Assembly: GCA_963830105.1 (NCBI GenBank)
Contig: CAWHLH010000003.1
Span: forward strand, 323,931 to 387,930
Length of the DNA stretch: 64,000 nt
Direction of reading: 5' to 3'
DNA from: an uncultured Gammaproteobacteria bacterium
GTDB lineage: Bacteria > Pseudomonadota > Gammaproteobacteria > DATFLG01
The notes under the pieces: generated by a model
Seen by the model: only the letters and a program-made list of their open reading frames with translations
What the model was told of the DNA's origin: nothing
The model's database searches: none
Part shown: positions 23,512-45,133 of the stretch, piece after piece
How the letters are laid out: every line of letters begins with the position of its first letter
How positions within the stretch are numbered: the first letter of the stretch is position 1
Program-made: the position numbers and the translations under genes

Positions 23512-23520
23512 ACCAATAGA

Positions 23521-27138: not shown

Positions 27139-27443
27139 GCAGGGTTCGCTGCCAAGGTCGGCACTTGAAAGGCACCCTTTCACGTGGGGCTGTTCCCCTA
27201 CTGGAACAAAACGGCATGGTGGCCCCTGAAGAGGTCCCCAATGTGGCATTGCTTCTTCGTTTTGAGCCATATAGGCATCCTTATGCACTCCCCTATTGCA
27301 GGGGTTTTTCTTTGTATTCCCATGGCATGCAGAACTGCGGATGGGTCGATAACACTTGCAAGAACGGGGCAAACGAAGACGCAATTTCACAGATCGGGAA
27401 TCAATACCAAGCAGGGGGGAGCACTGGCAAATGGCGTGGGGCC

Positions 27444-27926
27444 TTAGCAGTACTGTTCCAACGCCCCGGTGTGCGGGTCCTGAACCAACGGTGCCGCCAG
27501 CCCTCCGGGGTAACGACGCCGCAGGCGGAACAGTTCCTCTCCCATGGCCGGTCGGCCCGCTCCGCCAGTGAGTACAGGGGCGAATAGCCCCGCCGCCCCG
27601 TCGGCAAGTCCGCGTAGCGCGTCGATTATGAGATCCGGAAATCCCTGAACACACGTCCCATGCGCAGGGAAGTGCAGTAGGGCAAGTTCCCAGATCCCGG
27701 AAACGCCGAAGCTTTGCCGGATGAAGCAACCTTTGTCCCAGTCTTGCTCTGGAGGCGGAACCAACGTGGTGGGGATGCGTAACAGTGTGTTCGACTCGAT
27801 CCAGACACCGTGTAGCACTTGAGCAGCCGGCGACGGCTGCCTGTTCTGAAAGGCGAAGAACTCGCTGACTTCCTGACAGACGCGCTCCATGTCGGCAACA
27901 GAGCGTACGAACAGCAGGTAGCCCAC
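27444..27926 (-). CDS. Hypothetical protein
   Basis: 160-aa ORF immediately downstream of the aldolase-Dabb gene on the same strand. No recognisable motif. Confidence 0.35.
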   Translation of the reverse strand: MGYLLFVRSVADMERVCQEVSEFFAFQNRQPSPAAQVLHGVWIESNTLLRIPTTLVPPPEQDWDKGCFIRQSFGVSGIWELALLHFPAHGTCVQGFPDLIIDALRGLADGAAGLFAPVLTGGAGRPAMGEELFRLRRRYPGGLAAPLVQDPHTGALEQYC

Positions 27927-27941
27927 TTCGCCTCCTCCGCG

Positions 27942-29180
27942 TCAGCCCCGCGGAGCCTGGGACACCCAGCCAAGATACATGCCGGCAGCGTCTGCGGTAC
28001 CGCGTCCCGGGGAGGTCAGATACGGATCGGCACTGACGCGCTGGACCGGGCGAAATCGTTGTTTGGAGAGCGCGACATAGGCCGGGTGTTCATGATAGTT
28101 GTCGACCGCCGCCGAGTGACAAAAGCGGACCAGCCAGCTGTATCGACACAACGCATCGTCTCTCACTGCTTTGCCTGAATGTACCGCTCGCACGCCAGGA
28201 ATCGTGGTGAGAACACGCCGTCCCTCAGCCATGACTGTTTCAACCGCGCTGTCATCCAGCCCTTCGACATCGAGGGTAACGACATGTTCCACCGGCACCC
28301 AATGTCTGCATTGCTCCAACACCTCGGCTGCGCGGCCCGCCGCACCCCAGAGTCTGAGGCAGCGCTCGGTCTGCTGTTCCACCACCTCCTGTACAGCGCG
28401 CATGGCAGTGGTGTAGCGACCTTTCCCGTTACCCTTGGCGCTCGCCCGCACTTGCTCGAACGCCGCATCCGCAAGTCCAGTAAAATAGTTGATTTTGGCG
28501 ATGCCGTTATCGATCAACCGCCGAACCTGGCTGTTGTTGAGACCAGTGCCCCCATAGACGGCCAGCGGTATTCCCAGCGCTTCGTTGATCTGTTTAAGCC
28601 GCTGCCAATCGAGCTTTGGCTTTGCCTTCGTGCGACCGCGCACAGTCCCGATGGATACGGCCAGCAAGTCGACTCCGGTCCTGTCCACGTAGCCGCGGGC
28701 TTCGGCCACCGATGTATACACAAGCTGACTCGGATCCGGCGGTGCAGCGTCTCCTTCGGCCTCCGGCACATATCCCAGCGTGCCTTCCACGGGTACGCCG
28801 CAACTGCGGGCCATGGCAACCACCTCCCCGGTAAGGGCGATGTCTTCTCCCAACTCGCTATGGGAGGCGTCGACCATGACACCGTTACAACCTGCGTTGA
28901 TGGCGCGCACAGCGGACTGAAGATCACGGCCATGGTGCAAATGGATCGCCACCGGGACAGAGGCACGCTGTGCCGCGCACTCCACGGCCGCGACCAAAAG
29001 GTCGAACTCCAGGGACTCGAAATGCGGCTCCGCCAGACTCAGGATCACCGGCGCCCGACAGCGCTCCGCCGCCGCCATAACCCCCTGCAGGAACTCCAGA
29101 TTGACCAGTTCGAATGCCCCCACCGCGTAACTGTGCCGGTAGGCGTGGTCAACCATGTCCTTCATGTTTACCAGTGGCAT
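27942..29180 (-). CDS. Class II (ketose-bisphosphate) aldolase-like domain fused to a C-terminal Dabb (stress-responsive alpha/beta-barrel) domain
   Basis: 412 aa. N-terminal ~285 aa resemble FbaA/GatY-type class II aldolase (AVGAFELVNLEFLQGVMAAAE..., HLHHG, VMVDAS, LAVSIGTVRG, LAVYGGTGL), with some metal-ligand His positions substituted. C-terminal ~100 aa Dabb-like (VEHVVTLDVEGLDDSAVETVMAEGRRVLTTIPGVRAVHSGKAV...YSWLVRFCHSAAVDNYHEHPAY). Divergent from cbbR. Confidence 0.7.
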   Translation of the reverse strand: MPLVNMKDMVDHAYRHSYAVGAFELVNLEFLQGVMAAAERCRAPVILSLAEPHFESLEFDLLVAAVECAAQRASVPVAIHLHHGRDLQSAVRAINAGCNGVMVDASHSELGEDIALTGEVVAMARSCGVPVEGTLGYVPEAEGDAAPPDPSQLVYTSVAEARGYVDRTGVDLLAVSIGTVRGRTKAKPKLDWQRLKQINEALGIPLAVYGGTGLNNSQVRRLIDNGIAKINYFTGLADAAFEQVRASAKGNGKGRYTTAMRAVQEVVEQQTERCLRLWGAAGRAAEVLEQCRHWVPVEHVVTLDVEGLDDSAVETVMAEGRRVLTTIPGVRAVHSGKAVRDDALCRYSWLVRFCHSAAVDNYHEHPAYVALSKQRFRPVQRVSADPYLTSPGRGTADAAGMYLGWVSQAPRG

Positions 29181-29348
29181 TTTGGTCGTTGCTCCAGACG
29201 GTGATCCCGTTGCCGAATCGGGTGCCGTTCGCCCCCGAGGCCCGGCAACCGCGATTCTTGCGATCCATCCTTGGAGAAGGTGACGTCAGTGGGCCGCTAT
29301 TCCCGACCTCCCCGGTCGGGATCAGGTTGAGTCTATGGAGAGAAGCTG

Positions 29349-29399
29349 ATAAATTAAAGTTTAAGTTTTTAACTCTTTTCTTTATTGATCATTTAATCG
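29349..29399 (+). promoter_or_regulatory. ~50-bp AT-rich conserved element, copy C (candidate CbbR operator / cbb promoter element)
   Basis: ATAAATTAAAGTTTAAGTTTTTAACTCTTTTCTTTATTGATCATTTAATCG, 13 nt upstream of the cbbR ATG. Closely similar to two copies upstream of cbbL. Confidence 0.55.
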
Positions 29400-29411
29400 A
29401 CGATGTAGACG

Positions 29412-30326
29412 ATGCCCATTCGACGCGCGACCCTGCATCAGCTCCGGATCTTCGATGCCTTGGCCCAGCACATGAGCATCACCCGCACTGCGCAGATGCT
29501 CCACCTGACACCGCCGGCCGTTTCCATTCAGGTCAAACAGTTAGCCGAGGCGGCAGGTCAGCCACTGGTGGAACAGGTAGGGAAAAAGCTCTATCTCACG
29601 GAAGCGGGCGAAGCCGTCGCTTCGGCCTGCCGCGACGTCTCGGCGCGCATGGAACGGCTTGTCCAGGAGCTGGCTGCGATCCAGGGGCTCGAGAAAGGCA
29701 CCCTCAGCGTTTCCATTCTCACCACCGCCAAGTACTTTGTGCCGCAACTGCTGGGCCAACTGAGCGCGCAGCATCCCGGCATCGAGGTCTCACTTTTCGT
29801 TGGCAACCGCAAGGCGATTCTCGATCGGCTCGCCCACAATCAGGATGATCTGTACATCCTCGGTCAGCCTCCCGAGAACCTGGGCGTCGTCACCCTGCCC
29901 TTCGCGCCGAATCCCCTGGTCGCTATTGCCCACCCGGAACACCCGTTGGCCGGAAAGAAGAATATTCCGCCGCAGCGCTTGGCCGAAGAGCCGTTCATTG
30001 CACGGGAACAGGGCTCGGGTACCCGCCTGGGGTGCGAGGCCTTCTTCCGGCGCCATGACACTACACCACGGGTGCGAATGGAGCTTGGCAGCAACGAAGC
30101 CATCAAACAGACGGTGGCGGGGCGACTGGGCATTTCCATCATCGCAAAGATCACTGTTGAAGCGGAGATCGCCCGAGGCAACCTCGCCATTCTGGACGTT
30201 GAAGGCCTACCCCTCGAACGCCAGTGGCACCTGGTCCATCCCGAGCACAAAATCCTGGCGCCGGCGGCGCTAGCGTTCAAGGACTTCCTTCTGTCCCAGC
30301 ACATCGGCGAGGACGCTCAAGCATAG
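29412..30326 (+). CDS. cbbR: LysR-family transcriptional regulator, probable RuBisCO operon regulator CbbR
   Basis: 304 aa. N-terminal LysR HTH (LHQLRIFDALAQHMSITRTAQMLHLTPPAVSIQVKQLAE). Bounds the carboxysome supraoperon and is divergent from a Calvin-cycle-type aldolase gene. Confidence 0.8.
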   Translation: MPIRRATLHQLRIFDALAQHMSITRTAQMLHLTPPAVSIQVKQLAEAAGQPLVEQVGKKLYLTEAGEAVASACRDVSARMERLVQELAAIQGLEKGTLSVSILTTAKYFVPQLLGQLSAQHPGIEVSLFVGNRKAILDRLAHNQDDLYILGQPPENLGVVTLPFAPNPLVAIAHPEHPLAGKKNIPPQRLAEEPFIAREQGSGTRLGCEAFFRRHDTTPRVRMELGSNEAIKQTVAGRLGISIIAKITVEAEIARGNLAILDVEGLPLERQWHLVHPEHKILAPAALAFKDFLLSQHIGEDAQA

Positions 30327-30883
30327 GCGCACCGTGGCCGCAGTCGGCGGGTCTTTTGCACCATGCGATACGTCGAGCGGTTATTGTTGAATCGCGAAAC
30401 CTGCCCCAGCGGTACCCATCGAACATCATGGGACTCGTCACTGCCCGGCACGGGCAGCCGGTCGTCGATCTCCACGAGAAAACGGACATCGATATGATCA
30501 TGCTCCGGACCCCGATGGCTGGCCGGGATACGATGGATATCGAGATCGAAGATCGGGCCGTCCACCAGGCGGAGTTGGTCCGCATCGATCCCGCTCTCCT
30601 CTGCGGTTTCACGCAGGGCGACCGCCACGATATCGGCCTCGCCGTCGGCGTGTCCTCCCGGCTGAAACCACTGGTCGTGTTTGCGGTGGTGCACCAGGAG
30701 CACCCGTGAGCGATCCGGGTTGACCACCCAGGCGGACCCCGTCACATGGGCCGGCCACAGATCGCAGCGAAAACAATCCGGATGCAGCTCCACAAATGCC
30801 CGCGACCGGTCGATATAGGCCGCCTCCTCCATGAACGGCGTGCGGTGCCGAGCCAATAAGCCGAGTAGTTTCTGGCGATGCAT
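30317..30883 (-). CDS. NUDIX hydrolase
   Basis: Internal ATG at 30883. Nudix box GGHADGEADIVAVALRETAEESG. Last gene of the minus-strand carboxysome-associated string. Confidence 0.8.
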   Translation of the reverse strand: MHRQKLLGLLARHRTPFMEEAAYIDRSRAFVELHPDCFRCDLWPAHVTGSAWVVNPDRSRVLLVHHRKHDQWFQPGGHADGEADIVAVALRETAEESGIDADQLRLVDGPIFDLDIHRIPASHRGPEHDHIDVRFLVEIDDRLPVPGSDESHDVRWVPLGQVSRFNNNRSTYRMVQKTRRLRPRCAYA

Positions 30884-30887
30884 GGCT

Positions 30888-31502
30888 TCACGTACCCGAT
30901 GGGTTGTTGACCGCCGCGATGGCCGCGGCCGCAGCCTCGTCGACGTCCGCCTCACGGCCGGACAGAGTCAGGCGCCCATAGGCACCGACGGCACGCACGT
31001 CGATGAGGGTGATGTTGGCGGCCTTCTCCGCCTGGTTGGCGGCATATACGATGTAGCCGGCCGGTTCGGTTTCCAGGATGAACATGCTCTGTTCGGGCAG
31101 GATCATCGAACCGCGACGGTTCTGCCGGTTGATCAGCACCGTGTGATCCGGCGTCATGCCCCGAATCACCTCCTGCCACGCGATCTGGCAAGGCCGTCGA
31201 TTGCGCACCTGGGCGCCCAGATGCTGGAGTATGACTCCGCCCGCCTCCTGCACGTCGCTCTGATCGCGATGGTGAATGACCATCGAACCGTACGCCCGCT
31301 CAACCACCTGCTGCGCCAGATTCACCCGCGTGGCCTTGAGCGCAATATCGGTCAGCCGATGGATCGCCATACCGGGCGACACCTCCACCCACAGACAAGC
31401 GTCGCCCGGTACGGGCAGGAAACCCTGCGACACCGTGGCCATGTACTCGGCAAGCTGCGGCTGCAACGAGTCGATATAGACGTATGTTCGAAGCTCTATC
31501 AT
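30888..31502 (-). CDS. csoS1D: Carboxysome shell protein CsoS1D (tandem BMC-domain pseudohexamer)
   Basis: ATG at 31502 with GGAAGAG RBS. ~204 aa with two BMC-like halves ([40 protein letters not shown]... and ...[48 protein letters not shown]), closely resembling CsoS1D. Confidence 0.8.
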
Positions 31503-31592
31503 CGAAAAAGCTGCTCTTCCAGAAATCCACAACCAGCCCCTGAGCGCGGCTTCGTGTCAATCGGCGATGGCGGTATGAACCCCCGGGGGCAA

Positions 31593-31919
31593 TCAGCCGC
31601 TGAATTTCACCAACCGGGTGATCTGAATATCGGAGATGAATACCACACCGGAATGTTCGTTATAGAAAGGCGCAAGACCCTCCAGGATCGGCTTGACCAA
31701 CTCTTCCGGGACTGCCGCAATGATCATGACCAGCACGTCGTCCTCATTGAACATGAGGTGGCCTTCGTGAAATCCGTGACTGCCCTTGCCCGAAAGATTA
31801 TTGATGATCGTATAACCCTTGACCCCCGCCCGGTCCAGGATGTCGGTGGCAAACCCCTGGTGTTCGCCACCCAGAATGATTTCAAGCTTCTTGAGCGGGC
31901 TGAAATTCAGATTGTGCAT
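31593..31919 (-). CDS. P-II-like signal-transduction family protein (SbtB/DAB-associated type)
   Basis: 108 aa. AGGAGA RBS. PII-fold length and sequence ([12 protein letters not shown]..., T-loop region [10 protein letters not shown]). Sits directly downstream of the dabA remnant, as in DAB operons. Confidence 0.65.
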
Positions 31920-34900
31920 GATTCGGTCTTCTCCTCGACGAAAGCCGGTTCGGGGCGCCCCACATGCGGGGCTTGGTCCACTGACCTTCCTCGTACACCT
32001 TCACGTCCCCCTGTTCCGGGTCGATGATCACCAGCCGGATCCAACCGTTGCGGACCAGCGCTTTCACGGCGGGCACACTCTCCACCGCCCGCCAGGCATG
32101 CTCAAACGGCGCCTCGATCACCGTGATCAGACGCAGCGGCTCATGGTAGGGGAGTCCACCGTCGAGAACGGTCTGCGCCGGCAGGCCGGTGCGCAGGTCG
32201 CTCAGATTCCCCGTCATCACACCGAAGCGACCGGCCACGTTGTGGTAGACCTTGCTGCCGCTGCCGAAACGCTCGTTGTCAACGGTGGAAAAGTAGTGCT
32301 CCATGTTGATCCATTGGCCGACCACCAACGGACCGGTAAGTATGTTCTCCAGCAACCTGCGCTTGGGATCGACGCGATAGTCGTAGGAATGCAGAAACGC
32401 ACGGCCCTCCAATGACATCGACTGGGTCAGGGCTCGACGGCCGATGACGAAGTACGCGTTGCCCGCCAGGCCCCATTCCGGACGCACCTGAGACCAGTCC
32501 ATGGCGTTGCGCTGGGCGTCCTTGAATGCTTCGCCCGGCTCCGGCGAACCTGCGTCCATCTGCAGAGCTGGCATGCGCTCCTGTGTGCAAAGACGGGACG
32601 CTGCCGTAAAACCCTTGCGCAGCCGATCCATGTACAGCACGTGGGACGGGGGCATCCTGTCCAGGTCGAACAGTTGCAGGCCGTCGGTCGTGGTGTCGTG
32701 GAGGGCGGGTACGAACGATGCATCGTCGGGGATATCAATGCCCTGTTCGCGCAGCCTGTGGCGCACCTCCGCCTTGTTCGCCATCTGCGCAAGAGCCCGG
32801 GCGTTGACCAGTCCGTGGTTACCTCCGCAGGCGCCGCAATCGAGTGCCGATTCGTAGGGATTGTTCTCGGAGGTGCTGCCATGCCCGACCAACAGGATGA
32901 ATCGGGAGAAGCCCGCCGTCAAACCTATGGAACGCAGCGCCTGTCCGACGAAACCGACCTGTTCGTCGAGGCTGAAACCCAGTCGCGCAAGCCGTTCCAT
33001 CTGTAGCTGGGCAAAGGACTGATCGATGCGATAGACCCGTCGCAGGCGCTCGATGAATGCCCGCTCTGCCGCTCGTCCACGTCGAGCGATTTCGCCAGCG
33101 CCGGGGCCCTGGCCGATTGCCCAGGGCCGATTCGCGAAATTCGCGGACGAGTGCATCGTTGATCCCTTCGGCCTCAAGGCCGAATTCTTGCTCCACCGCC
33201 TTGACGATCACGGCCCTTTGGACGGCGCGCACGATCGAATCCGCCTGCTCCCGGGTGAGCTTGTCGAGCAGCAGACGGGTAAGCGGCTTGCTCCATGCAG
33301 ACGCTGACGCCAGCGGTTGTAGCGGGCGGGATCAGGTCTTGCCGACCAGATCCAGACCAAACAACAAACCAATGGCCTCGACGGTGACAAACGGAGTGAG
33401 CACGGATTCCTTGAGCTCGTGCAAGACTTCTCCAGAGCGGTAAGGCGCCGGCATCCGCTTTACCTCCGAGATGGCCATTTCCAGAACGAGATTCTTAGGC
33501 GTCAGCAATACCGGGCAGAGATGGATCTCACTGCCCTTGCCCAATTCCATGAAGCTCACCGGCACGCCGAAAAAGCCCGCGATACCGTAGGTCTGGTAAT
33601 CGCCCACATTCTCCAGATGCCGACGGATTCTCTCGGAGCGGGTATCGATGCAAAACAGGGCCTGCGCGAACGGGCGCTTCTCCCGCGCAACGGCTGGCTG
33701 GTAACTGACACCATTGAGCAGGCGGTGCATCGCGCTCTGTTCCAGGGCCCGCAGCCAGATCATGCCTTCGCCTTGCTCGAATTCGCGAAGCGTGTCCAAT
33801 AGCCTGCGCAGCCCCTCCGTGGACAGATGCTGAAGCGCCTCGGGTTGACCCGCCTTGCGCGCCAGTTCCGCAAGCCGCCGCCCCTGGCATTCGGCCTCAT
33901 CAGAGCCGCTTCTGCGCTACATACTCGGAAAATAGCCGTTGAATTGTCCGAGGCCGACCGCCTGCCAGTGTCTGCTGACCCCGAGCGGCCAGGGCCGGCG
34001 ACGCCGAACCGCCATGCAGTTCGTGGCGAAGGTAGGTTTCCCTGGGCCGTTGCTCGATAGCTGCCATCACACTGGCTGCGCTGGCGGCGATTCCCTTGCG
34101 TCCCCGCTCGCTCGACGGCGCGACAGCAAGGGTCAGTCGCACTGCCATCAGGTCACCAGGTCCACCGGATAGCGCTCCGCCCGATGATAGTGCTTGGCGT
34201 TGGCCCGCCAGCGGATGAACCCCGCCCAACCATGCAGGCGTGCAAGCTCCCGTGCGAAGTAAGTCACCCACTGATCCTCGGGCACTCCGAGCATCTGCAT
34301 CGGCTGGGAGATGACCGCCTCGGGGCTATCTTCCTTACCGGCGACACGATTGATGTGCAGGCCCCGCAGATACAGACGGCCGTTGCGACTGGCGACATCG
34401 CGCCACGCTGCAAAGAAGCCCTGATTGCGCCCGGGCATACCCCATACGGACTGACCTTCGTCGAAGAAATCCAGGCAACTCTTGATCACCAGCTCGTCTA
34501 GCTCGGAGCCGATTTCAGTGCCATAAAGCGCATAACCGCTTCGTATACCGGGCGGGGCCCAACAACTAGCAGCGCAGCCGATCGGCCAGCGCCTCGCCGT
34601 CGAGCTGCGACGACACGTCCGGGCGGCCGTTCAGGGCGCTGTGTCATCGGGGATCTGCGCCAACGTATTGGCTTGAACGACGGGTAGTCCATCCCTGTCA
34701 GCAAGACTGACAACCAGGTGCGCAAGTCCACCTCGGGCAGCGCCTCCCGGTCCTCCATAAAGCGATTTACGGTGGCCACCAGCTCCGCCTGATCGACCTT
34801 CCCCTGGACCAGGTAACGCTGATAATCGGCCCGTTCAGGAAGCCCTTCGCATGGAACATCCGCCTGCCTTCCTCAACCGCCTCGGAGAATGGCGGATGCT

Positions 34901-34983
34901 CCAAACCGTGAAGCGGATTGTGGTGAATGAACGACCGCATGGGCCAGAAGTACGGAATGGGTTCTCCGGCCAAGTAGATCATG
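31882..34983 (-). pseudogene. dabA: DabA (DUF2309/PF10070, DAB CO2-uptake complex subunit A), fragmented by multiple frameshifts/stop
   Basis: DabA homology spread over at least 5 ORFs in three frames: 34767..35597 (N-terminus IYLAGEPIPYFWPMRSFIHHNPLHGLEHPPF), 34498..34779, 34148..34489, 33332..33799 (ALFCIDTRSE) and 31882..33177 ([22 protein letters not shown]). Frames switch in the order 2, 0, 1, 1 (separated by an in-frame stop), 0. Confidence 0.75.
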
Positions 34984-34999
34984 GCGCAGAACCGACTCT

Positions 35000-35773
35000 T
35001 TGGCCGAGTGGGAGCGTCATACCAGATCCCCCGTGAGCAGGAACCCGCTGACGAGCAGAATGACCAGCACCGCGGTGTAAGCCCAGGTGAAGCCACACTG
35101 AGATCCGGTGCTTCGCTACCGTTGGCCGGACCCACGATCAGTCCTTGAAGCAGGCGCGTTCCCGCCCAGCTCCAGAGCAGCCATACGCCCGCCACGGTCA
35201 GCGCAGCCAACGGCATCGTCGGCGTTATAGCAACGACGGTTGCCAGCATGGCGAAAAAGGTGGGGAACGACGGAGCGGCCACGATCGCCAGTACCACGCC
35301 CACCAGCACGCCGGACATCCGCGGGAGCGTCTGTGCCAGGCCGCCGTACAGACCCGTATAGGCGGCACCGAAACGCTCTTCCAGACGAGCGCCAAGCAGG
35401 GCGAGCAGCATCAGCGGCAGACTGAACCCGAGTGCGTACAAGCGCACCCGGGAAAGGTCCGTGTGAGCAAAGAGCGCAACCCACAGAGCGCCCACGCCGA
35501 GGTGGCCAGGTAGCCGATCCACTGACCCACTTCCCGCAGCCCAATGGCCCGAAAGGCATACAGGGCCGAGGTAAACAAAGCCAGGAACACACACCAATGG
35601 GGAATCGGTCGATTGACCGCATGCACCAGGCTCAAACCGAGTTGGGGCCAGACCAACAGCAGTACGACGCGCAGCGTGGCATTGCGTACCCGACTGAAAA
35701 GCACATTAAAGCCCATGCTCAACGGGAACAACGGCAGAAACAAGCCACCAAACCAGTAGGTCAACGTACTCAT
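35000..35773 (-). pseudogene. Frameshifted gene for a polytopic membrane protein between dabB and dabA
   Basis: Hydrophobic ORF 35411..35773 (MSTLTYWFGGLFLPLFPL...) continues in another frame in the 5' part of ORF 34767..35597 (...LPLMLLALLGARLEE...VLVGVVLAIVAAPSFPTFFAMLATVVAITPTMPLAALTVAGVWLLWSW...). Together ~240 aa, interrupted by a frame change near 35410-35600. Confidence 0.45.
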
Positions 35774-35774
35774 G

Positions 35775-37460
35775 TCAGACCCATCCCAACCAGACGTTCA
35801 GTCGTGTTGCCAGCGCCAACAGCGCCCGGGCGAAGCGGGTAAAGACGTCGGTCAGATAGAACTCCCGAGAAACCAGTGCATAGAAGGCCAGCCACAGTCG
35901 ACCGTGATGCTCGCCTTGGCGGCTTCCGTTCTGTTCCGAATAGTAGGTCAGCACCCAACCCGCCACGATCAACACCGTAACCAGGCCCACCAGGATGTCG
36001 AAGCGCAGCACGCCGATATTGGCCGCCGCATAGATCTGCTGACGGAACGCCTCGTCCGGATAGAGGAACAGATCGAAGGCGTGGCTGATGAGGGTGTAAC
36101 CGAGCACCACGATCGTGAAGGAAAGGATGCTCAGCGTCACCAGTCGCCAGAGGTTTCCGGCCTGCATACGATAGGTGGCGAAGATCAACTGGGCCCCGGT
36201 GACCCAGCCGAAAAACAACAGCACCACGGCGCCCTGTTCCTGGAAATAGTCCTGGCCGACCAGTGAATGGGCCACTATGAGTATGGTCACGGGCACCGCC
36301 AGGGTGATCGCCGCCATCAGCACCCAGGGCCGGCGAACCCTTGCGGGACGTCTCTCCACCACAAAGGTGTAGAGTTCGTCCTTCGGCAACCCGTCGTCCT
36401 TGCGGGCCGCACCGATCGCGCCGCCGGCGCCCAGAAAGAGCGTCCCTTTGAACAAGCCATGGGAAATGAGGTGAAAAATCGCGAGAGAAAATGCCCCCAC
36501 TCCGCATTCCATGATCATGAAGCCCATTTGCCCCATGGTCGAGTAGCCGAGCGACTTCTTGATGTCGTTTTGGGTAAGCATGAGGGTCGACCCGATGAGA
36601 GCGGTGACAAGACCAACGATGAACACCCAAGGCAGCACACCTTCCGTATGGGCGAACACGGGTGCGAAGCGGTTGATCAGAAATCCCCCCGCATTGACGA
36701 TCCCGGCATGCATCAAGGCCGACACGGGGGTGGGCCCGGCCATGGTGTAGGGAAGCCAGGTATGGAGCAGAAACTGCGCCGAGCGCGCAAAGGCGGCCAC
36801 CGCTACCAGACTGGCGACCAAGCCCGTCAATGGCAGTCCGAAAAAGCTGTAGATAACCGGGCCGTGGGCGATGTGAACGAATATCTCAGGCAAGGACCAT
36901 GTACCGAAGGCGTGATAAAGCAGACCTGCGGCGAGCACCAGAGGCAGGTCCCCGAAGCGATAGGTGATAAGCGTCCAGAAGGCATATCGGTGTGCGGCGT
37001 GACTGCGGGTATCCTGCCCCAGCAGAAAGTAGAGCAGGACCCCGATCAAATGCCAGGCGATCAACAGGGTGATCAGGTCCCCGGCGCAAACCATCACCAA
37101 CAGCGTCGCGGTCATGATGTCCAGCAGCACGAAGAAACGTCCATAACCGGCTTCCTCGGCCATGTAGCGCACGGAATAGATGTGCACGATCAGGCTTATG
37201 CCGGCGATAACCGTCGCCATCAGGGAGCTCAGGGGATCGAACAGGAATATGCCCCACGAACCCGCCAGGGAAATCTGACCCGAAGCCCCGTGGGCGACCG
37301 CCGTTGCCAGAACCACGACCGCAAGAGAAAAGGTGACGGCCGCGACAGTAACACTCACACGGGCGACCCGGCGCCCGAGCCGGGCGGACAACAGCTGTAC
37401 CAGCACAGCCGACACCAGGGGCAAAAGCGCGACCATTACGACGAGCTTTTCCATGGTCAT
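35775..37460 (-). CDS. dabB: DabB (NuoL/Mrp-antiporter-like, PF00361) subunit of the DAB CO2-uptake complex
   Basis: 561 aa polytopic membrane protein with complex-I antiporter-like subunit (NuoL/MnhA) features. Encoded directly after mcdB and before the dabA remnant within the cso supraoperon. Confidence 0.8.
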   Translation of the reverse strand: MTMEKLVVMVALLPLVSAVLVQLLSARLGRRVARVSVTVAAVTFSLAVVVLATAVAHGASGQISLAGSWGIFLFDPLSSLMATVIAGISLIVHIYSVRYMAEEAGYGRFFVLLDIMTATLLVMVCAGDLITLLIAWHLIGVLLYFLLGQDTRSHAAHRYAFWTLITYRFGDLPLVLAAGLLYHAFGTWSLPEIFVHIAHGPVIYSFFGLPLTGLVASLVAVAAFARSAQFLLHTWLPYTMAGPTPVSALMHAGIVNAGGFLINRFAPVFAHTEGVLPWVFIVGLVTALIGSTLMLTQNDIKKSLGYSTMGQMGFMIMECGVGAFSLAIFHLISHGLFKGTLFLGAGGAIGAARKDDGLPKDELYTFVVERRPARVRRPWVLMAAITLAVPVTILIVAHSLVGQDYFQEQGAVVLLFFGWVTGAQLIFATYRMQAGNLWRLVTLSILSFTIVVLGYTLISHAFDLFLYPDEAFRQQIYAAANIGVLRFDILVGLVTVLIVAGWVLTYYSEQNGSRQGEHHGRLWLAFYALVSREFYLTDVFTRFARALLALATRLNVWLGWV

Positions 37461-37499
37461 AGATCCCCTCCCCTCAGGTAGCGGTATACAATGACGCCC

Positions 37500-37727
37500 T
37501 CAGTCGGGCCACACGCGGCGCCCGCTCTGGTAAGGATCGCCGCGCTGCTCTCTGGTCCCCTGTGACGACCCCCGGCTCGCGGCCTTCTTTCGGGTGCGCG
37601 GCTGGGGCTTTTGAGCTCGGGGCTGCTTCTGCACGCTTTGTGGTGCCTCGGCCTTGGTTGCCGCAGCCGCCTTGGTCTTGCGCATGGAGTCCACCAGTTT
37701 CTCACCGGTTTTGTCGTTCGCAGTCAT
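37500..37727 (-). CDS. mcdB: Small basic disordered protein, candidate McdB (carboxysome positioning adaptor)
   Basis: 75 aa, Lys/Ala/Gln/Pro-rich low complexity, ends ...RRVWPD with a C-terminal tryptophan. Start overlaps the mcdA stop (ATGA). Position immediately downstream of the ParA-like McdA. Confidence 0.5.
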   Translation of the reverse strand: MTANDKTGEKLVDSMRKTKAAAATKAEAPQSVQKQPRAQKPQPRTRKKAASRGSSQGTREQRGDPYQSGRRVWPD

Positions 37728-38350
37728 TGTGTGACTACCTCATTGATCAGGTTACGGATCTCGGCGGCAGCGGCAGCGCCGCTGCGCCCCATATCCAGCA
37801 CGCTCTTGCCTTCCAGCACACTGGCGCGATAGACGGCCCGTCGGCGAATCGCGGTATCCGCAGCAGGAAACTCCAGTTCGGCGAGGGCTTCCCGAATCAG
37901 GCGGGATAGCCGCGTACGCGGCTCCAGCTGATTGATCACGAGCAGCGCCCTGAGCCCAGGGTTGCTACCGCGCGCTGTCGCCACGGCCTGTTCGATGTGT
38001 ACCGTGGCCCACAGGTCGAGCGGCGAAGGCTGCACCGGTATCAGCGCGATATCGCTGACCGCGAGGGCCACATGAGTCTGGGCTGCGTGTACCGATGGCG
38101 GGCAATCGATAACCACATGCTCATAGAGAACGGCGGTGTCCGCGAAGATGTCTTCGAGGCCGCTTGCGGTATCAATTACCTTTGGTTCCCTGCCGGGCGC
38201 TGCGATGCTTTGCCATTGCAGCGCAGATCCCTGCGGGTCGGCGTCCAACACCACCGTGCGGCCGTTCGTCGCCAGCGTGGCGGCAAGATTGACGGCGAGG
38301 GTCGTCTTACCTGCCCCTCCCTTGTTGCCCACCAATGCAATCACGGCCAT
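37724..38350 (-). CDS. mcdA: ParA/MinD-family ATPase, McdA-type (maintenance of carboxysome distribution)
   Basis: ATG at 38350 with GAGG RBS. Deviant Walker A with signature lysine (LVGNKGGAGKTTLA). ~208 aa. Embedded in the alpha-carboxysome operon. Confidence 0.75.
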   Translation of the reverse strand: MAVIALVGNKGGAGKTTLAVNLAATLATNGRTVVLDADPQGSALQWQSIAAPGREPKVIDTASGLEDIFADTAVLYEHVVIDCPPSVHAAQTHVALAVSDIALIPVQPSPLDLWATVHIEQAVATARGSNPGLRALLVINQLEPRTRLSRLIREALAELEFPAADTAIRRRAVYRASVLEGKSVLDMGRSGAAAAAEIRNLINEVVTQ

Positions 38351-38361
38351 GGGGCGAGGCC

Positions 38362-38625
38362 TCAACCGGTCCCGGCGCCGCGATACAGCTCGTCGAGTTG
38401 CTCGGCGAAACGACGCTGCGTCTCTCCCAGTTCATCCGCGCCTTCTTCGGCGTGAATGGTGAAGTTCGCGTAGTCGCGACCGAATCCGATGTCCGGATAC
38501 AACCCTTCGCGCTCGGACAGGTCCGCTGCACGATCCAGGAAATCACGCAGGGTGGAATAATCCGGAAATCCGTAGCGGCGTTCCAAGCGATTAGGACGTT
38601 TGCGTTCCTGCCATTGGTCACTCAT
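38362..38625 (-). CDS. Pterin-4a-carbinolamine dehydratase-like protein (alpha-carboxysome RuBisCO assembly factor acRAF-like)
   Basis: 87 aa. PCD/DCoH-like (RLERRYGFPDYSTLRDFLDRAADLSEREGLYPDIGFGRDYANFTIH). Canonical position after the bfr-like gene in cso operons. Confidence 0.65.
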   Translation of the reverse strand: MSDQWQERKRPNRLERRYGFPDYSTLRDFLDRAADLSEREGLYPDIGFGRDYANFTIHAEEGADELGETQRRFAEQLDELYRGAGTG

Positions 38626-38637
38626 GGCGCATCTTCT

Positions 38638-39117
38638 CTAAAAGGTGGCGCGCGGCTTTCCACGAACAGGGGCATCGGGCCGCTCCAGGCCTTCGAGCCA
38701 ACCGGCCAGCTCGCGTCCATGAGCCATTTCCTCCTCGAGAAGCGTCGCGAAGAACAGGCGGTTGTCATGATCGCCCTGACGGGCACAGTAGCGGGTGGCA
38801 TCGTCGTACAGCCGCACGAGTTCGTGCTCCAGCATCTGGTCGTGCCGCAACAGCGCCTGCAGGTCGTGTCCAAGCTGCACTGGACGCAGTTGGGATGCGC
38901 TGGGTGCCACACCCACGGCCAACATGCGTGCGATGACCCTGTCCACATGCCCCATCTCTTCGGTTGCTTCGTCGCGCAGTCGGTTGGCCGGTTCGGCCAG
39001 CCCCCAGGTCGCCACCAGTCGCGCCTGGGTGCTGTACTGCTGAACCGCGCTGAACTCGAGGCTCAGCGCTCTGCCGAGATAACCGAGAACACGCTGATCG
39101 GAAAGCCCCTGAATCAT
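38638..39117 (-). CDS. Bacterioferritin-like (ferritin/rubrerythrin-like) domain protein, carboxysome-operon associated
   Basis: 159 aa. Ferritin-like four-helix pattern with E...E..H motifs (EFSAVQQY...EATEEMGHVDR...EHELV...EEEMAHGRE). Confidence 0.7.
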   Translation of the reverse strand: MIQGLSDQRVLGYLGRALSLEFSAVQQYSTQARLVATWGLAEPANRLRDEATEEMGHVDRVIARMLAVGVAPSASQLRPVQLGHDLQALLRHDQMLEHELVRLYDDATRYCARQGDHDNRLFFATLLEEEMAHGRELAGWLEGLERPDAPVRGKPRATF

Positions 39118-39157
39118 GACGACGTATCCGTCAGTTGATCTGTACGCGTGGGCCTAC

Positions 39158-39481
39158 TCAGCTGCGAGCTGGGCGATTGCCGGCCATGGCGTTCTCGCCG
39201 TCGAGCACCGGTTCGACTTCCCGGTGCGGGCGGGCGATGATATGCGCCGCGACCAGACCGTCACCCACGCGTTCGCAGGCGTCGGCCCCGGCACGCACGG
39301 CCGCGTTTATCGCCCCCGTCTCACCACGCACCAGCACGGTGACGTAGCCGCCGCCCACGAACTCGCGTCCGATCAGACGCACCTCGGCGGCCTTGGTCAT
39401 GGCGTCCGCCGCCTCAATGGCGGGCACCAGCCCGCGGGTTTCAATCATGCCGAGCGCAATACCGTAGGTATTGTTGGCCAT
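39158..39481 (-). CDS. csoS1: Carboxysome shell hexamer protein CsoS1 (BMC domain), copy 3
   Basis: ATG at 39481 (MANNTYGIALGMIETRGLVPAIEAADAMTKAAEVRLIGREFVGGGYVTVLVRGETGAINAAVRAGAD...). Canonical BMC-H. Confidence 0.93.
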   Translation of the reverse strand: MANNTYGIALGMIETRGLVPAIEAADAMTKAAEVRLIGREFVGGGYVTVLVRGETGAINAAVRAGADACERVGDGLVAAHIIARPHREVEPVLDGENAMAGNRPARS

Positions 39482-39523
39482 GGCTGGAATCTCCTGTCGC
39501 ACGTAGAGTTTCTAGTAGGTTAC

Positions 39524-39841
39524 TCAGGCCGCCGCGGAAGCGGACTGATCGCCGCCGGTCGGCAGCACCGGTTCCACTTCGCGATGCGGACGCGCAATGA
39601 TGTGTGCCGCGACCAGACCGTCGCCAACACGCTCGCAGGCATCGGCTCCGGCACGCACCGCCGCGTTGACCGCACCGGTTTCACCGCGCACCAGCACGGT
39701 CACATAGCCGCCGCCCACGAATTCGCGCCCGATCAGACGCACCTCAGCGGCCTTGGTCATCGCGTCTGCCGCTTCGATGGCGGGCACCAGTCCGCGTGTC
39801 TCGATCATCCCCAATGCGATACCGTAATTGTCATTTGCCAT
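39524..39841 (-). CDS. csoS1: Carboxysome shell hexamer protein CsoS1 (BMC domain), copy 2
   Basis: 105 aa. Near-identical BMC-H core to the neighbouring copies, with a short divergent C-terminal tail. Confidence 0.93.
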   Translation of the reverse strand: MANDNYGIALGMIETRGLVPAIEAADAMTKAAEVRLIGREFVGGGYVTVLVRGETGAVNAAVRAGADACERVGDGLVAAHIIARPHREVEPVLPTGGDQSASAAA

Positions 39842-39883
39842 CGTTGGATCTCCGTCTTCGGAATTAAGAGAACATACAGCGTC

Positions 39884-40174
39884 TTACGTGTTACCCAATA
39901 CCGGCTCGACCTCGCGGTGCGGACGGGCAATGATGTGTGCGGCGACCAGGCCGTCACCCACGCGCTCGCAGGCATCCGCCCCGGCACGCACCGCCGCGTT
40001 GACCGCACCGGTTTCGCCGCGCACCAGTATGGTGACGTAGCCGCCGCCCACGAATTCACGCCCGATGAGACGCACCTCGGCGGCCTTGGTCATGGCATCC
40101 GCCGCTTCGATGGCGGGCACCAGTCCGCGTGTCTCGATCATGCCCAGTGCGATACCGTAACTTTCATCTGCCAT
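39884..40174 (-). CDS. csoS1: Carboxysome shell hexamer protein CsoS1 (BMC domain), copy 1
   Basis: 96 aa (MADESYGIALGMIETRGLVPAIEAADAMTKAAEV...). Canonical BMC-H. Confidence 0.93.
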   Translation of the reverse strand: MADESYGIALGMIETRGLVPAIEAADAMTKAAEVRLIGREFVGGGYVTILVRGETGAVNAAVRAGADACERVGDGLVAAHIIARPHREVEPVLGNT

Positions 40175-40189
40175 CTTCGTGTCTCCTGC

Positions 40190-40510
40190 TTACGTTGTTT
40201 CCCGTTCCAGGGCCCTCTTGCCCCGCCTGTTTCTGTCACTGTCGCGGCCGCCCGGCGTTGCGGTTTCGACCTCCCAGTAATCGATAATGCCGCCGATGGT
40301 GAGATCGGTGAGAACCCCGAAGTCACCGCAGGCGTATCGCGCGGCCGAGCCGCTGACGGTAAACACCCAGTTGCCCTCGCACGCACCCACTGGATCGACG
40401 GCCACATGCCGCCCGCCCTTTGAGTCTCGCAAGACCCGCAGGCTGGTGTGTTGCAGGCCCTGTATCCTGCGAGTGCAGACCAGCGGCGCTTCGACTTGGA
40501 GAATATCCAT
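40190..40510 (-). CDS. csoS4B: Carboxysome vertex (pentamer) protein CsoS4B (EutN/CcmL family)
   Basis: ATG at 40510 (MDILQVEAPLVCTRRIQGLQHTSLRVLRD...). BMC-P fold pattern. C-terminal extent uncertain. Confidence 0.8.
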   Translation of the reverse strand: MDILQVEAPLVCTRRIQGLQHTSLRVLRDSKGGRHVAVDPVGACEGNWVFTVSGSAARYACGDFGVLTDLTIGGIIDYWEVETATPGGRDSDRNRRGKRALERETT

Positions 40511-40519
40511 CGATCTGTC

Positions 40520-40777
40520 TCAGCCCTGCGCCTCTTCCGGGGGCCAGTGGTCAATTATTCCGACGATGGTCAAATCGCTCGGATATTCCTTGCTGCCTGC
40601 CGCTTCACGGGCGGCCGAACTGCCCACGCAGACCACCCAGTCGCCGGGAATGCAGCCCACAGCATCCACCGCCACCAGCATCGCACTGCCGTCACGCACC
40701 ACCTGCATGTGCCTGTGCTCCAGGCCAGGAATGCGATTGGTGGCAACCAGCGGCCGCTCCACCTGACAGATCTTCAT
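40520..40777 (-). CDS. csoS4A: Carboxysome vertex (pentamer) protein CsoS4A (EutN/CcmL family)
   Basis: Internal ATG at 40777 overlapping the csoSCA stop (TGATG). 85 aa (MKICQVERPLVATNRIPGLEHRHMQVVRDGSAMLVAVDAVGC...). Confidence 0.85.
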   Translation of the reverse strand: MKICQVERPLVATNRIPGLEHRHMQVVRDGSAMLVAVDAVGCIPGDWVVCVGSSAAREAAGSKEYPSDLTIVGIIDHWPPEEAQG

Positions 40778-42297
40778 CAGTGCGCTTCCCCTGTGGCATC
40801 GCCGTTGACAGAACAACCCAGCACTTCAATGCCGCCATGGGACGCGTGGTCGCGGACCAGCATCAGCGTGTACAGCAGACCGCCGTTGACAAGATCCGCA
40901 TAGCGTGCAGCGATGGCCTGCGCCACCCGCTGGCAGCGGCCTACCGCCCGTTCGCGCGCGCCCGGCACATGCCCCTGGTAGTCGTATCGCACTACCACCG
41001 GGATGGGCAGACCGTGGGCCACATTCAACCGGGAGAAGATCTTCACACCGACATCCAGGTCGGGAGCGGCCTCCTCGACTGTGTCGAGATAAGCGAAATA
41101 GGTGAGGTTGCGAAGCTGCACTTCCTCGAAACCCTTGCCCGCGCCGATGAAACGCTCGGCGTGCCCGATGTCCTGGTAGCGCCCGCCGTGATGGGCGCCC
41201 ACGTACTCGATCTGGGACAGGTTGTTTTCCAGCAGGCGTGAAATCAGCCGCCGCATACCTGCGGGCATATCGGGCGCTGCCTCGCGCATCCGCGCCTCGA
41301 TGCATTCCTTTGCCTGGTATTGCGACAACCGCTGGGTCGCCTCGTACAGTTCGTGCGCATCGACATACTGGTCCAGAGCGATGGCGCCATCGCCGTCCGC
41401 CACGTGCACGCGAATGGCATCGGTATCGGTGTCCAGTCCGATCAGCATGAGATCTATGGAAGCGCCGCAGCAGTGCGTGTTCTGCACCGCCTGCTGGAAG
41501 CTGCACAGCCGTTCCAGCCCGGCACGCGCCGCCGCCCCCGCGTCGGAGCCGTGGGCCGCACAGCCTTCACGGGCCGGGTCACCCGAACTGTAGTGGTAAA
41601 CCACCGCCTTCAGGTAGCGGGTGGGCGCATCGGCCGTGTTGGGGCGACCCTCGCGAAACCGCATCAGTTCGGTTTCGGTCCACTTTTCAAGACTGTCGTC
41701 GATGTCGAACAGCGCGCCCGCATAGGACTTGCGTCGTACCGCGCGGTAGGGCAGCCGGAGCACAAACCGTATGACGTGGGCCAGCCGGCCGTCGGCGCAG
41801 GGGGAGACATCCAGGGTATGGAAACCGCATTCCTGCAGAAATGCATCGAAGGCGTCTTCGTCGTGCGAGCCCAACGGGTCGTTGGCGAAGAAGTCATCGC
41901 AAAAGCGGCGATAAGTCTCGAATACACACCAGGCGAACAGGCGGCGCATGTCCAACTGCTCCACCCAGGCGTCGGCCAGAATATGCGCTGGCAGCTCAAA
42001 GCCCAGGCGTTCACGCGCCATGCGCTGCGCGCGAACCTCGAAATGCTCTTCGTGCTGCAGAGCGGAAATGCGCTTGAGGGTCGGCACGATACCGTCGAAG
42101 GCGGACTTGACCCGCTGTTCGTAGTCGAACAGTCGTGCGTTCTCCCCGACCCGCACCAGCGGCTGGCGAATCCGGTGCCCCGCCCCATCGGCGCGCAGCG
42201 CCGGCGGGCGCCCGCCAGCCACCGCCCCCGGACGCCGCCGAGGGGCGGCCGGCTGGGGCGCGGGCCTTTCAGGGGATGATTGCGGTAGTTGCAACAT
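40777..42297 (-). CDS. csoSCA: Carboxysome shell carbonic anhydrase CsoSCA (CsoS3)
   Basis: 506 aa. Characteristic CsoSCA sequence (FETYRRFCDDFF...HTLDVSPCADGRL...HCCGASIDLMLIGLDTDTD...). Canonical position between csoS2 and csoS4A. Confidence 0.9.
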   Translation of the reverse strand: MLQLPQSSPERPAPQPAAPRRRPGAVAGGRPPALRADGAGHRIRQPLVRVGENARLFDYEQRVKSAFDGIVPTLKRISALQHEEHFEVRAQRMARERLGFELPAHILADAWVEQLDMRRLFAWCVFETYRRFCDDFFANDPLGSHDEDAFDAFLQECGFHTLDVSPCADGRLAHVIRFVLRLPYRAVRRKSYAGALFDIDDSLEKWTETELMRFREGRPNTADAPTRYLKAVVYHYSSGDPAREGCAAHGSDAGAAARAGLERLCSFQQAVQNTHCCGASIDLMLIGLDTDTDAIRVHVADGDGAIALDQYVDAHELYEATQRLSQYQAKECIEARMREAAPDMPAGMRRLISRLLENNLSQIEYVGAHHGGRYQDIGHAERFIGAGKGFEEVQLRNLTYFAYLDTVEEAAPDLDVGVKIFSRLNVAHGLPIPVVVRYDYQGHVPGARERAVGRCQRVAQAIAARYADLVNGGLLYTLMLVRDHASHGGIEVLGCSVNGDATGEAH

Positions 42298-42433
42298 GCC
42301 TGTATCCGGAATCTCGCCAATCCAACGTTAACCGGTTCAGCCCCGGGCTCCACCGGAATAGGTCACCAGTGCGCCGCGGTCGGTATTGCCGCTACCGCCC
42401 GTGACTTTGCTCACGGGCTCCGGCACCTGGTCG

Positions 42434-44691: not shown

Positions 44692-44733
44692 CTCTTACCC
44701 CGTCGCGTCGATGTTTACCTTCCGTTACCGGGT

Positions 44734-45078
44734 TCAGCCGCGTCCTTCGAAGACGACGAACGCCAGACCCTGGCTCTGGGTGTAGTTGTCGTAACCGATC
44801 AGGCGAACGTGGTGATCCGGGTACGCGCGGTGGCAAGCCTCCAGTTCGTTGATCACGTTGGACAGGTTGGTCTCACCGAAGAAGGGCAGCTTCCACATGG
44901 TCCAGTAGTGGTTGGTGGCCCTGGAGGGATGCTCGTGCTCGATGGCCGGCGTCCAGCCCTGGGCGAGCAGGTAGACGATCTGCTCGTGTATCTCATCCTG
45001 GGTCATGGGCGGCAGGAAGCCGAAGGTCTCAAGGGTGTGGGCGGTCTGGTAGTCACCCATCTCGTACATGCTTGGCAT
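44734..45078 (-). CDS. cbbS: RuBisCO small subunit (form IA)
   Basis: 114 aa (MPSMYEMGDYQTAHTLETFGFLPPMTQDEI...YWTMWKLPFFGET...). Classic CbbS. Confidence 0.95.
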   Translation of the reverse strand: MPSMYEMGDYQTAHTLETFGFLPPMTQDEIHEQIVYLLAQGWTPAIEHEHPSRATNHYWTMWKLPFFGETNLSNVINELEACHRAYPDHHVRLIGYDNYTQSQGLAFVVFEGRG

Positions 45079-45133
45079 GGTCGTATTCCTCGCTTCAGTT
45101 CAGTCTCGGGTTCGCAGGGAGCGTGCCGTGCGA

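Follow-up and report, generated by a model that had tools for sequence, protein, structure and literature searches.

In a 64,000-nucleotide stretch of DNA from an uncultured Gammaproteobacteria bacterium (GTDB lineage DATFLG01; assembly GCA_963830105.1, contig CAWHLH010000003.1, positions 323,931 to 387,930; the whole stretch is referred to below as 'the window'), a gene at 27942..29180 on the minus strand (stop codon included) encodes a protein that joins a class II aldolase-like barrel to a dimeric alpha/beta barrel (Dabb) domain, and in which two of the three zinc-binding histidines, together with the catalytic aspartate and a glutamate, have been replaced. On balance this protein, termed 'pseudo-CbbA' here, is probably a pseudo-aldolase under CbbR control, with no catalytic role, that works by binding either a ligand or a partner. 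It is a diverged member of the CbbA family encoded in Rubisco and carboxysome operons, one in which aldolase chemistry appears to have been abandoned and the protein kept; if so, it would no longer cleave sugar bisphosphates, and it is probably a helper of the CO2-concentrating machinery.

A two-domain protein with an aldolase fold

The open reading frame (ORF), which was characterised by its Pfam matches, by an AlphaFold2 model and by ratios of nonsynonymous to synonymous substitution (dN/dS), specifies 412 amino acids from an ATG start, with a GGAG sequence 11-14 nt 5' of that start. The F_bP_aldolase profile (PF01116) is matched over its whole length by residues 4-283 (E 9.4e-73), and the Dabb profile (PF07876) is matched by residues 297-380 (E 2.5e-6; 28.5 bits against a cutoff of 25), so that the two-domain architecture proposed in an earlier note on this DNA is borne out within a single ORF. 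The product accordingly divides into a class II aldolase-like TIM barrel (residues 1-285; 28326..29180, minus strand), delimited by alignment to aldolases in the PDB, by Foldseek and by residue conservation; a Dabb domain (residues 297-380; 28041..28292, minus strand), delimited by Pfam and predicted secondary structure; and a disordered C-terminal tail (residues 377-412; 27945..28052, minus strand) that ends in S-Q-A-P-R-G-COOH.

The AlphaFold2 model, built on 101 relatives, has a mean predicted local distance difference test score (pLDDT) of 85.3 and a predicted template modelling score of 0.85, and lays out the TIM barrel over residues 1-285, a linker helix, a strand-helix-strand-strand-helix unit over residues 297-375, and disorder from residue 377. 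The barrel superimposes on solved class II aldolases (3Q94 and 8Q57) with a Foldseek template modelling score of 0.93, normalised to the target; a Foldseek search of the PDB with the full model returned aldolase barrels only, and no solved structure covered the Dabb part or the fusion. Among the aldolase equivalogs of NCBIfam, the best match reaches 242 bits against a cutoff of 406 (NF005284), and all 19 models score below their cutoffs; proteins of this family are currently annotated as 'fructose-bisphosphate aldolase' or 'ketose-bisphosphate aldolase'. The possibility that a frameshift had merged two ORFs was rejected because relatives at 57-92% identity are collinear with the window protein over its full length, and there is no frameshift between the domains.

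Replacement of the catalytic site and its fixation in one clade

Substitutions at the active site were read from HMMER alignments to the solved class II aldolases 7NCC, 8Q57 and 4TO8. The motif HLDHG reads HLHHG in the window protein, where the catalytic aspartate is replaced (D82H; CAC, 28935-28937) and His83 is retained; VEAELG has become VEGTLG (E134T; ACG, 28779-28781); GSVHG has become GTVRG, with replacement of the second zinc ligand (H181R; CGC, 28638-28640); and LVLHGGTG has become LAVYGGTG, with replacement of the third (H209Y; TAT, 28554-28556). From the set of zinc-binding histidines known in Escherichia coli as H110, H226 and H264, His83 alone is kept, the equivalents of H226 and H264 being Arg181 and Tyr209. 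The earlier claim that zinc-coordinating histidine had been replaced is thus confirmed against solved structures at two positions, and D82H and E134T are found in addition; Asn231 is still asparagine in the window protein. Single His-to-Gln or Asp-to-Ala changes at such positions cripple class II aldolases, and two variants of that kind, H180Q (5UD2) and D83A (3GB6), are among the Foldseek matches of the model. Profile search and alignment found neither a full set of conserved ligands, nor a lack of Dabb similarity, nor a gene split into separate ORFs, these being the outcomes that the earlier note had set against its own proposal.

Conservation was assessed by comparing 22 protein clusters, 65-96% identical to the window protein and referred to below as the window clade, with 78 canonical relatives. 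The 22 clusters form a separate, long-branched clade in a midpoint-rooted neighbour-joining tree without an outgroup, which does not separate a nested from a sister position. At position 181 the clade has arginine in 22 of 22 clusters and the canonical relatives have histidine in 78 of 78; at position 209 the corresponding residues are tyrosine (21/22) and histidine (78/78); at position 83 both groups have histidine (21/22 and 78/78); and at position 82 the clade has histidine in 16 of 22 clusters where all 78 canonical proteins have aspartate. Other parts of the site have drifted rather than changed to a fixed alternative. Position 134, a glutamate in 75 of 78 canonical proteins, is occupied by eight different residues in the clade; position 231, the asparagine that binds dihydroxyacetone phosphate (77/78 canonical), is Asp in eight clusters, Asn in seven, Ser in three, His in two and Gly in two; and the glutamate-bearing mobile catalytic loop at residues 140-151, conserved as GVEGEDAERHPG in canonical proteins, is variable. 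Remnants of the phosphate pocket persist across the clade (G182 in 22/22, K/R185 in 19/22, G210 in 21/22, S/T212 in 20/22 and K229 in 22/22), and the window protein itself retains G182, K185, G210-G211-[TS]212-G213 and K229. Sequencing error as the source of the substitutions was rejected because 22 independent assemblies agree, R181 recurring in 22 of 22 and Y209 in 21 of 22 independent relatives.

Purifying selection on the clade protein is as strong as that on its catalytic relatives. Over residues 1-376 (barrel and Dabb domain, the tail being scored apart), pairwise dN/dS in the clade is 0.06-0.18, with values of 0.05-0.16 for the barrel and 0.10-0.28 for the Dabb domain, compared with 0.07-0.16 for canonical pairs; the barrel is better conserved than the Dabb domain (dN 0.03-0.20 versus 0.06-0.38), and the C-terminal tail has a dN/dS of 0.2-1.4. 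Intact, full-length ORFs are present in 22 of 22 clusters. Because dN/dS lies in the range of the catalytic relatives, the protein is under selection and not decaying, and a pseudogene was rejected on that measure.

The Dabb domain and the C-terminal tail

The Dabb domain of the window protein is recognisable and altered. Its hallmark, Y362-x-x-H365-P366-x-H368 in canonical form, reads Y..HP.Y, with Y362, H365 and P366 kept and tyrosine at position 368; this position is tyrosine or phenylalanine in 21 of 22 clade members and histidine in 78 of 78 canonical proteins. The beta-alpha-beta-beta-alpha portion of the fold is predicted confidently by AlphaFold2, and the last strand (canonical 'ISIDY') appears to be lost in the clade, the corresponding region from residue 377 onward having a pLDDT below 50. 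The Dabb score of 28.5 bits compares with 37-42 bits for canonical relatives.

Read by eye, approximately 16 of the 22 clade tails end like S-Q-x-x-R-G (x-x-R-G), after a variable and disordered linker, and this ending is not present in the 13 canonical sequences of the alignment; it looks like a clade-specific short linear binding motif. A search for its partner by comparison of the termini of proteins encoded at the locus gave a sole match, to CbbS, which ends ...EGRG, and this likeness is probably a coincidence. Many clade tails (relatives P0002-P0021) also carry an S-W-G motif approximately 25 residues upstream of the terminal motif.

A CbbR-like regulator and a motif shared with the carboxysome promoter region

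The gene lies divergent, across 231 bp, from a LysR-type regulator gene (29412..30326, plus strand), in agreement with the head-to-head pairing described earlier. The regulator has the Pfam domains HTH_1 and LysR_substrate, and its best NCBIfam match is CbbR, at 277 bits and thus below the cutoff of 450; its gene is convergent with the end of the carboxysome and DAB operon, and it is found in the same position, at 85-96% identity, in all clade loci.

An element shared with other upstream regions, also part of the earlier note, was recovered when the 231-bp spacer was compared with the window by BLAST: two matches were returned, both upstream of cbbL (46732-46801, E 1e-5, and 46651-46702). The A/T-rich, operator-like element in the spacer (29329..29398, plus strand; delimited by BLAST, motif count and footprint) has a core at 29348-29373 that reads GATAAATTAAAGTTTAAGTTTTTAAC and contains the palindrome TTAAAGTTTAA. 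A 26-nt core pattern, GATWAATKAMAGTTTAANTTTYTWAC, is present at three places in the window, where chance alone would give none; since that pattern was built from the same three sites, the independent evidence for a shared motif is the BLAST match. The two cbbL-side copies (46652-46677 and 46752-46777, plus strand) lie 106-231 nt upstream of cbbL (45134-46546, minus strand), exactly 100 bp apart and in the same orientation, and each is followed by a second conserved box (TTTAYKGATC.TYTAAT), a layout that resembles the recognition and activation sites of LysR-type regulators. In eight of eight clade loci the element near the LysR start is nearly invariant and the remaining spacer has diverged, a pattern that constitutes the phylogenetic footprint of a putative operator or promoter. 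A promoter scan of positions 27200-29500 returned no sigma-70-like site, and terminator-like sites there were no commoner than chance.

The regulator gene is adjoined by an alpha-carboxysome and DAB super-operon (30317..46546, minus strand), established from Pfam matches, tblastn and translations, which runs in the order cbbL, cbbS, csoS2, csoSCA, csoS4AB, three BMC-H genes, ferritin, acRAF (38362-38625), ParA and a small ORF, and continues with DabB, a 252-aa ORF, DabA (frameshifted in the window), P-II, CsoS1D and NUDIX. All clade loci with enough flanking sequence have identical synteny through DabB, DabA, P-II, CsoS1D, NUDIX and LysR to, across the spacer, the aldolase-like gene, and the segment from ferritin to NUDIX, which the relatives' loci reach, keeps the same order in them.

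The wider fusion family and repeated loss of the catalytic site

While the earlier note regarded the fusion as one unfamiliar from characterised aldolases, it is widespread and has been described before, as has its occurrence within cbb and carboxysome operons. A scan of one genome per species gave 315 fusion loci, mostly in sulfur-oxidising Gammaproteobacteria, and carriers include Thiodiazotropha, Sedimenticola, Thiogranum, Thiohalobacter, Sulfuricaulis, Acidiferrobacterales and Ferrovum. The Pfam Dabb entry is said to cite CbbA of Hydrogenophilus thermoluteolus, whose C-terminal extension is reportedly required for aldolase activity. Contexts and residues were read from the best 80 of the 315 loci, most of which lie beside Rubisco, CbbQO, carboxysome or CbbR-like genes. 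In about a dozen of these 80 the fusion gene is 4-6 kb downstream of form IA cbbLS, as in the locus L015, checked in full, which reads cbbL-cbbS-cbbQ-cbbO-aldolase-Dabb; five have cbbLS genes nearby, but farther off; twelve stand head-to-head with a LysR gene whose product is 52-63% identical to that of the window, and have an A/T-rich operator like the one there; a few belong to alpha-carboxysome operons (L024 from Thiogranum and L060 from Ferrovum); and others adjoin hibernation-factor, Bax1-I and Usp genes. In the Thiodiazotropha locus L041 (Candidatus Thiodiazotropha endolucinida, 8922-14780), a canonical fusion gene divergent from a CbbR-like LysR gene is followed by a two-subunit pyruvate carboxylase, another enzyme that consumes CO2 or bicarbonate.

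A published member comes from Acidithiobacillus ferrooxidans, in which the cbb1 locus comprises cbbR and, next to it, cbbL1S1-cso-bfrA-parA-hyp2-cbbQ1-cbbO1-cbbA (PMC2942843; PMC6458275). The cbbA gene at its end (AFE_1676 / ACK80290.1) is co-transcribed with the carboxysome genes (PMC2942843; PMC6458275), and its product is listed with both Pfam01116 and Pfam07876 (PMC2942843). A literature search turned up only the papers on this operon, and found none that notes family members, or the window clade, without a catalytic site.

Most of the family keeps its catalytic residues: D82, H83, E134, H181 and H209 are all present in approximately 68 of 81 distinct proteins from the best 80 of the 315 loci, to whose canonical members the window protein is 54-62% identical, and the substitutions are for that reason a trait of one clade and not of the fusion as such. 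A sample of JGI metagenomes, queried with a seven-sequence alignment of degenerate members, likewise returned mostly canonical family members (59 of 82 loci), and nine of the 82 carried H181Q, some of them in cbbLSQO loci. This H181Q-only sub-family (L112, L152, L123, L126 and five more metagenome loci) has its other catalytic residues intact, is found either in cbbL-cbbS-cbbQ-cbbO loci or head-to-head with a LysR gene, and may represent an intermediate step towards the loss of metal binding.

Degenerate forms are nevertheless diverse. A second lineage, from hydrothermal-vent bacteria (P0125-P0131; L071, L087, L090, L092 and L102), has its gene directly downstream of CsoS1D-NUDIX, where a complete alpha-carboxysome operon ends; it carries Asn82, a residue 181 that is deleted or retained, and Gln or Arg at position 209, and its Dabb domain is nearly invariant (dN/dS 0.16, versus 0.39 for the barrel). 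In the neighbour-joining tree without an outgroup, this lineage branches beside canonical, cbbLSQO-linked members and apart from the window clade, and its loss of the catalytic site is for that reason taken as independent. A third carboxysome-linked protein (P0182, from locus L173, not included in the tree) has lost every barrel motif, and its gene follows ferritin-acRAF-ParA-LysR-NUDIX.

A broader comparison used 55 aligned full-length, two-domain sequences, comprising 53 representatives of 50%-identity clusters (from P0174-P0277), the window protein and a canonical reference. The set D82/H83/H181/H209 is kept in nine of these and incomplete in 46, a proportion that overstates the abundance of degenerate forms because fast-evolving sequences split into more clusters. 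Among the 46, the Dabb hallmark Y-x-x-H-P-x-H is kept in 32, and conservation is higher in the Dabb domain than in the barrel (pairwise identity 0.43 versus 0.30). The nine sequences with an intact catalytic set have the reverse pattern, with a poorly conserved C-terminal domain (0.22 versus 0.44).

Proposed mode of action and competing explanations

The reading favoured here is that the promoter of the pseudo-CbbA gene would be controlled by the divergent CbbR-like regulator, and that the gene would be expressed together with those for the carboxysome and the DAB carbon pump under CO2 limitation, such co-expression being probable because the operator-like motif of the spacer also occurs twice before cbbL. 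The protein would then act through binding and not through catalysis: a candidate ligand is a sugar phosphate held in the remnant pocket, and a candidate contact is a protein partner reached through the Dabb domain and the disordered tail with its S-Q-x-x-R-G ending. Arg181 and Tyr209 would most likely occupy the vacated metal site and keep it stable, taking the structural place of the metal. Precedents for such a course exist in acRAF, an enzyme-derived, non-catalytic Rubisco factor, and in GatZ and KbaZ, the non-catalytic partners of class II aldolases. Several considerations weigh against this reading. An active site of a new kind could exist even though the ancestral catalytic residues are absent; R181 and Y209 are more strictly invariant than would be expected of a relaxed site, and these residues could themselves do chemistry; the barrel, being more conserved than the Dabb domain in the window clade, is not a mere scaffold; and regulation by the LysR protein is suggested by motif sharing, where the scan for consensus promoters found nothing.

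The most direct competitor is a metal-independent enzyme, in which the task of zinc, the stabilisation of an enediolate, would pass to Arg181, Tyr209 and His83 (with His82), in the manner of lysine and histidine in triose-phosphate isomerase, and whose proposed substrate is a Rubisco-linked phospho-sugar such as the misfire product xylulose-1,5-bisphosphate, handled together with the neighbouring NUDIX hydrolase. The near-invariance of R181 (22/22), Y209 (21/22) and H83 (21/22), the retention of the phosphate-pocket residues and the strong purifying selection on the barrel all accord with such an enzyme, and the gene repeatedly adjoins NUDIX or, in canonical relatives, the genes of the CbbQ/CbbO Rubisco activase. 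However, the clade does not conserve the residues by which class II aldolases position the ketose (Asn231, Glu134, position 82 and the mobile Glu loop), and in other lineages linked to carboxysomes the motif set is gone as a whole, residue 181 and GG[ST]G with it, so that a role common to the lineages cannot depend on this site; moreover, a metal-free enzyme of the PF01116 family would, to our knowledge, be without precedent, and this explanation is judged unlikely. For similar reasons the non-canonical aldolase or decarboxylase suggested in the earlier note is less likely than a non-catalytic protein, the catalytic loop and positions 134 and 231 all varying in the clade. Nor does it seem at all probable that the gene encodes an ordinary Calvin-cycle aldolase (CbbA) for fructose or sedoheptulose bisphosphate that tolerates its substitutions: its best Pfam and NCBIfam matches are indeed aldolases and it occupies the place of cbbA in other cbb loci, but one zinc ligand of three is left, the general acid Asp and Glu134 have also been replaced, and the best score of 242 bits falls far short of the cutoff of 406.

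A further possibility places the function in the Dabb domain, as a small enzyme or binding module, and treats the barrel solely as an oligomerisation platform whose chemistry could be dispensed with. Catalysis by tyrosine and histidine is known among Dabb-fold proteins, as in olivetolic acid cyclase, and the degenerate sequences as a group (hallmark intact in 32 of 46; identity 0.43 for Dabb and 0.30 for barrel) and the vent lineage (dN/dS 0.16 and 0.39) accord with such an arrangement. In the window clade, however, the pattern is reversed (dN 0.03-0.20 for the barrel and 0.06-0.38 for the Dabb domain), His368 has become Tyr or Phe in 21 of 22 members, and the last strand ('ISIDY') appears to be lost, with predicted disorder in its place; a Dabb-centred function thus fits the wider family and fits the window clade less well, and is considered distinctly unlikely for the latter. 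A decaying relic without function is scarcely credible: the lost catalytic residues and the fast-evolving tail (dN/dS 0.2-1.4) are what decay would produce, but the gene is intact and full-length in 22 clusters at 65-96% identity with dN/dS of 0.06-0.18, its synteny and operator-like motif are conserved, and the replacement residues are themselves invariant.

Beyond the window clade, the non-catalytic reading of pseudo-CbbA can be extended, tentatively, to the proposal that aldolase-like-plus-Dabb proteins serve alpha-carboxysomes and Rubisco operons as an accessory factor that has so far gone unnoticed, whose conserved role would be non-catalytic and whose aldolase chemistry would be ancestral or optional. 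Candidate roles would include binding of Rubisco, of its sugar-bisphosphate ligands or of a shell or scaffold protein, and the passing of a metabolite signal to CbbR. Chemistry would then have been discarded repeatedly (in the window clade, the vent clade, P0182 and most of the 50%-identity representatives), and a tethering tail (S-Q-x-x-R-G) would be an acquisition of the window clade.

Relation to known systems

The closest known type is the CbbA-Dabb protein, represented by AFE_1676 (likened here by its domain listing, PMC2942843) and by H. thermoluteolus CbbA, with which the window protein shares the Pfam01116 and Pfam07876 architecture and the kind of location, either last in an operon for Rubisco or the carboxysome or divergent from cbbR. 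It differs from the canonical form in the replacement of H181, H209, Asp82 and Glu134, in the change of His368 to tyrosine, in the apparent loss of the last Dabb strand and in the new S-Q-x-x-R-G tail. Class IIb fructose-, tagatose- and sulfofructose-phosphate aldolases (7NCC, 3Q94, 4TO8, 8Q57, 1GVF and 6OFU) have the same TIM barrel at 30-37% identity, and their glycine-rich phosphate-binding turn and Lys229 are retained in the window protein; unlike them, it has one of three metal ligands, no general acid Asp, and an additional Dabb domain and tail.

The likeness to GatZ and KbaZ is one of concept, these also being non-catalytic, aldolase-related accessory barrels. They belong to a different family (PF08013), which had no match in the window at E <= 0.01 in the Pfam search, and the window gene has no neighbour that codes for a catalytic partner aldolase. 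A further likeness is to acRAF, the Rubisco assembly factor of alpha-carboxysome loci that resembles pterin dehydratase: it too derives from an enzyme, lacks the ancestral chemistry and has its gene in this accessory region of the locus. Its fold is unrelated, and its function is known from experiment, whereas that of pseudo-CbbA is a proposal.

The downstream ORF and neighbouring genes

An ORF of 160 aa (27444..27926, minus strand) lies 15 nt 3' of the pseudo-CbbA gene, with the ribosome-binding site GGAGGAGG, and is a probable operon partner of that gene. The ORF that the earlier note placed there is borne out: its homologues fall into four clusters only, all of the same lineage, with a dN/dS of 0.27, and it is on those grounds regarded as a real, lineage-restricted orphan. 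It follows the aldolase-like gene in L005/L006/L010 and in L008/L012, and is absent in L001/L011 and L007/L013/L079. It has no Pfam or NCBIfam match, and its AlphaFold2 model, built on a four-sequence alignment, has a pLDDT of 46.

Directly downstream of the operon, at approximately 22000-28000, the G+C fraction falls to 0.57-0.59 in a variable island that holds genes for a Crp-like regulator (24159-25004) and a cyclopropane-fatty-acid-synthase-like methyltransferase (26185-27138), together with a Ysc84-like gene; in the relative L005, which is 92% identical, an HD-GYP protein and a pirin are encoded at the island position.

Within the super-operon, DabA (31948-34985, minus strand) is matched in three frames, with at least three frame switches, where all relatives have an intact protein of approximately 1040 aa. 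The neighbouring genes for DabB, P-II, CsoS2, the LysR regulator and the aldolase-like protein are intact, and the broken DabA is either a real dabA pseudogene or the product of a locally poor assembly. The DAB part also contains two conserved ORFs without a Pfam family in any relative, one of approximately 75 aa between ParA and DabB and one of approximately 252 aa between DabB and DabA (window 34767-35597 and 37500-37727; L005 1443-1670 and 3398-4156). Just upstream of the carboxysome promoter region, and unrelated to pseudo-CbbA, a gene for a CptA-type membrane toxin lies a few genes from one for a succinate dehydrogenase/fumarate reductase flavoprotein (47854-48285 and 49276-51405).

Significance

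The carboxysome loci of chemoautotrophs still hold accessory genes without a known role, and the transplantation of CO2-concentrating mechanisms into crops or industrial hosts depends upon a complete list of their parts. The label 'fructose-bisphosphate aldolase', as applied to these proteins, distorts metabolic reconstructions of uncultured sulfur oxidisers, because these organisms are credited with a Calvin-cycle aldolase which may in fact be missing. Catalytic and non-catalytic orthologues coexist within the family, and at the active site three or four point mutations set them apart. Should the recurrent loss of catalysis, with the protein itself retained, reflect a binding function linked to Rubisco or to CbbR signalling, then these proteins would constitute a new regulatory or assembly component, and pseudo-CbbA offers a testable lead to an unrecognised accessory factor of the CO2-concentrating mechanism.

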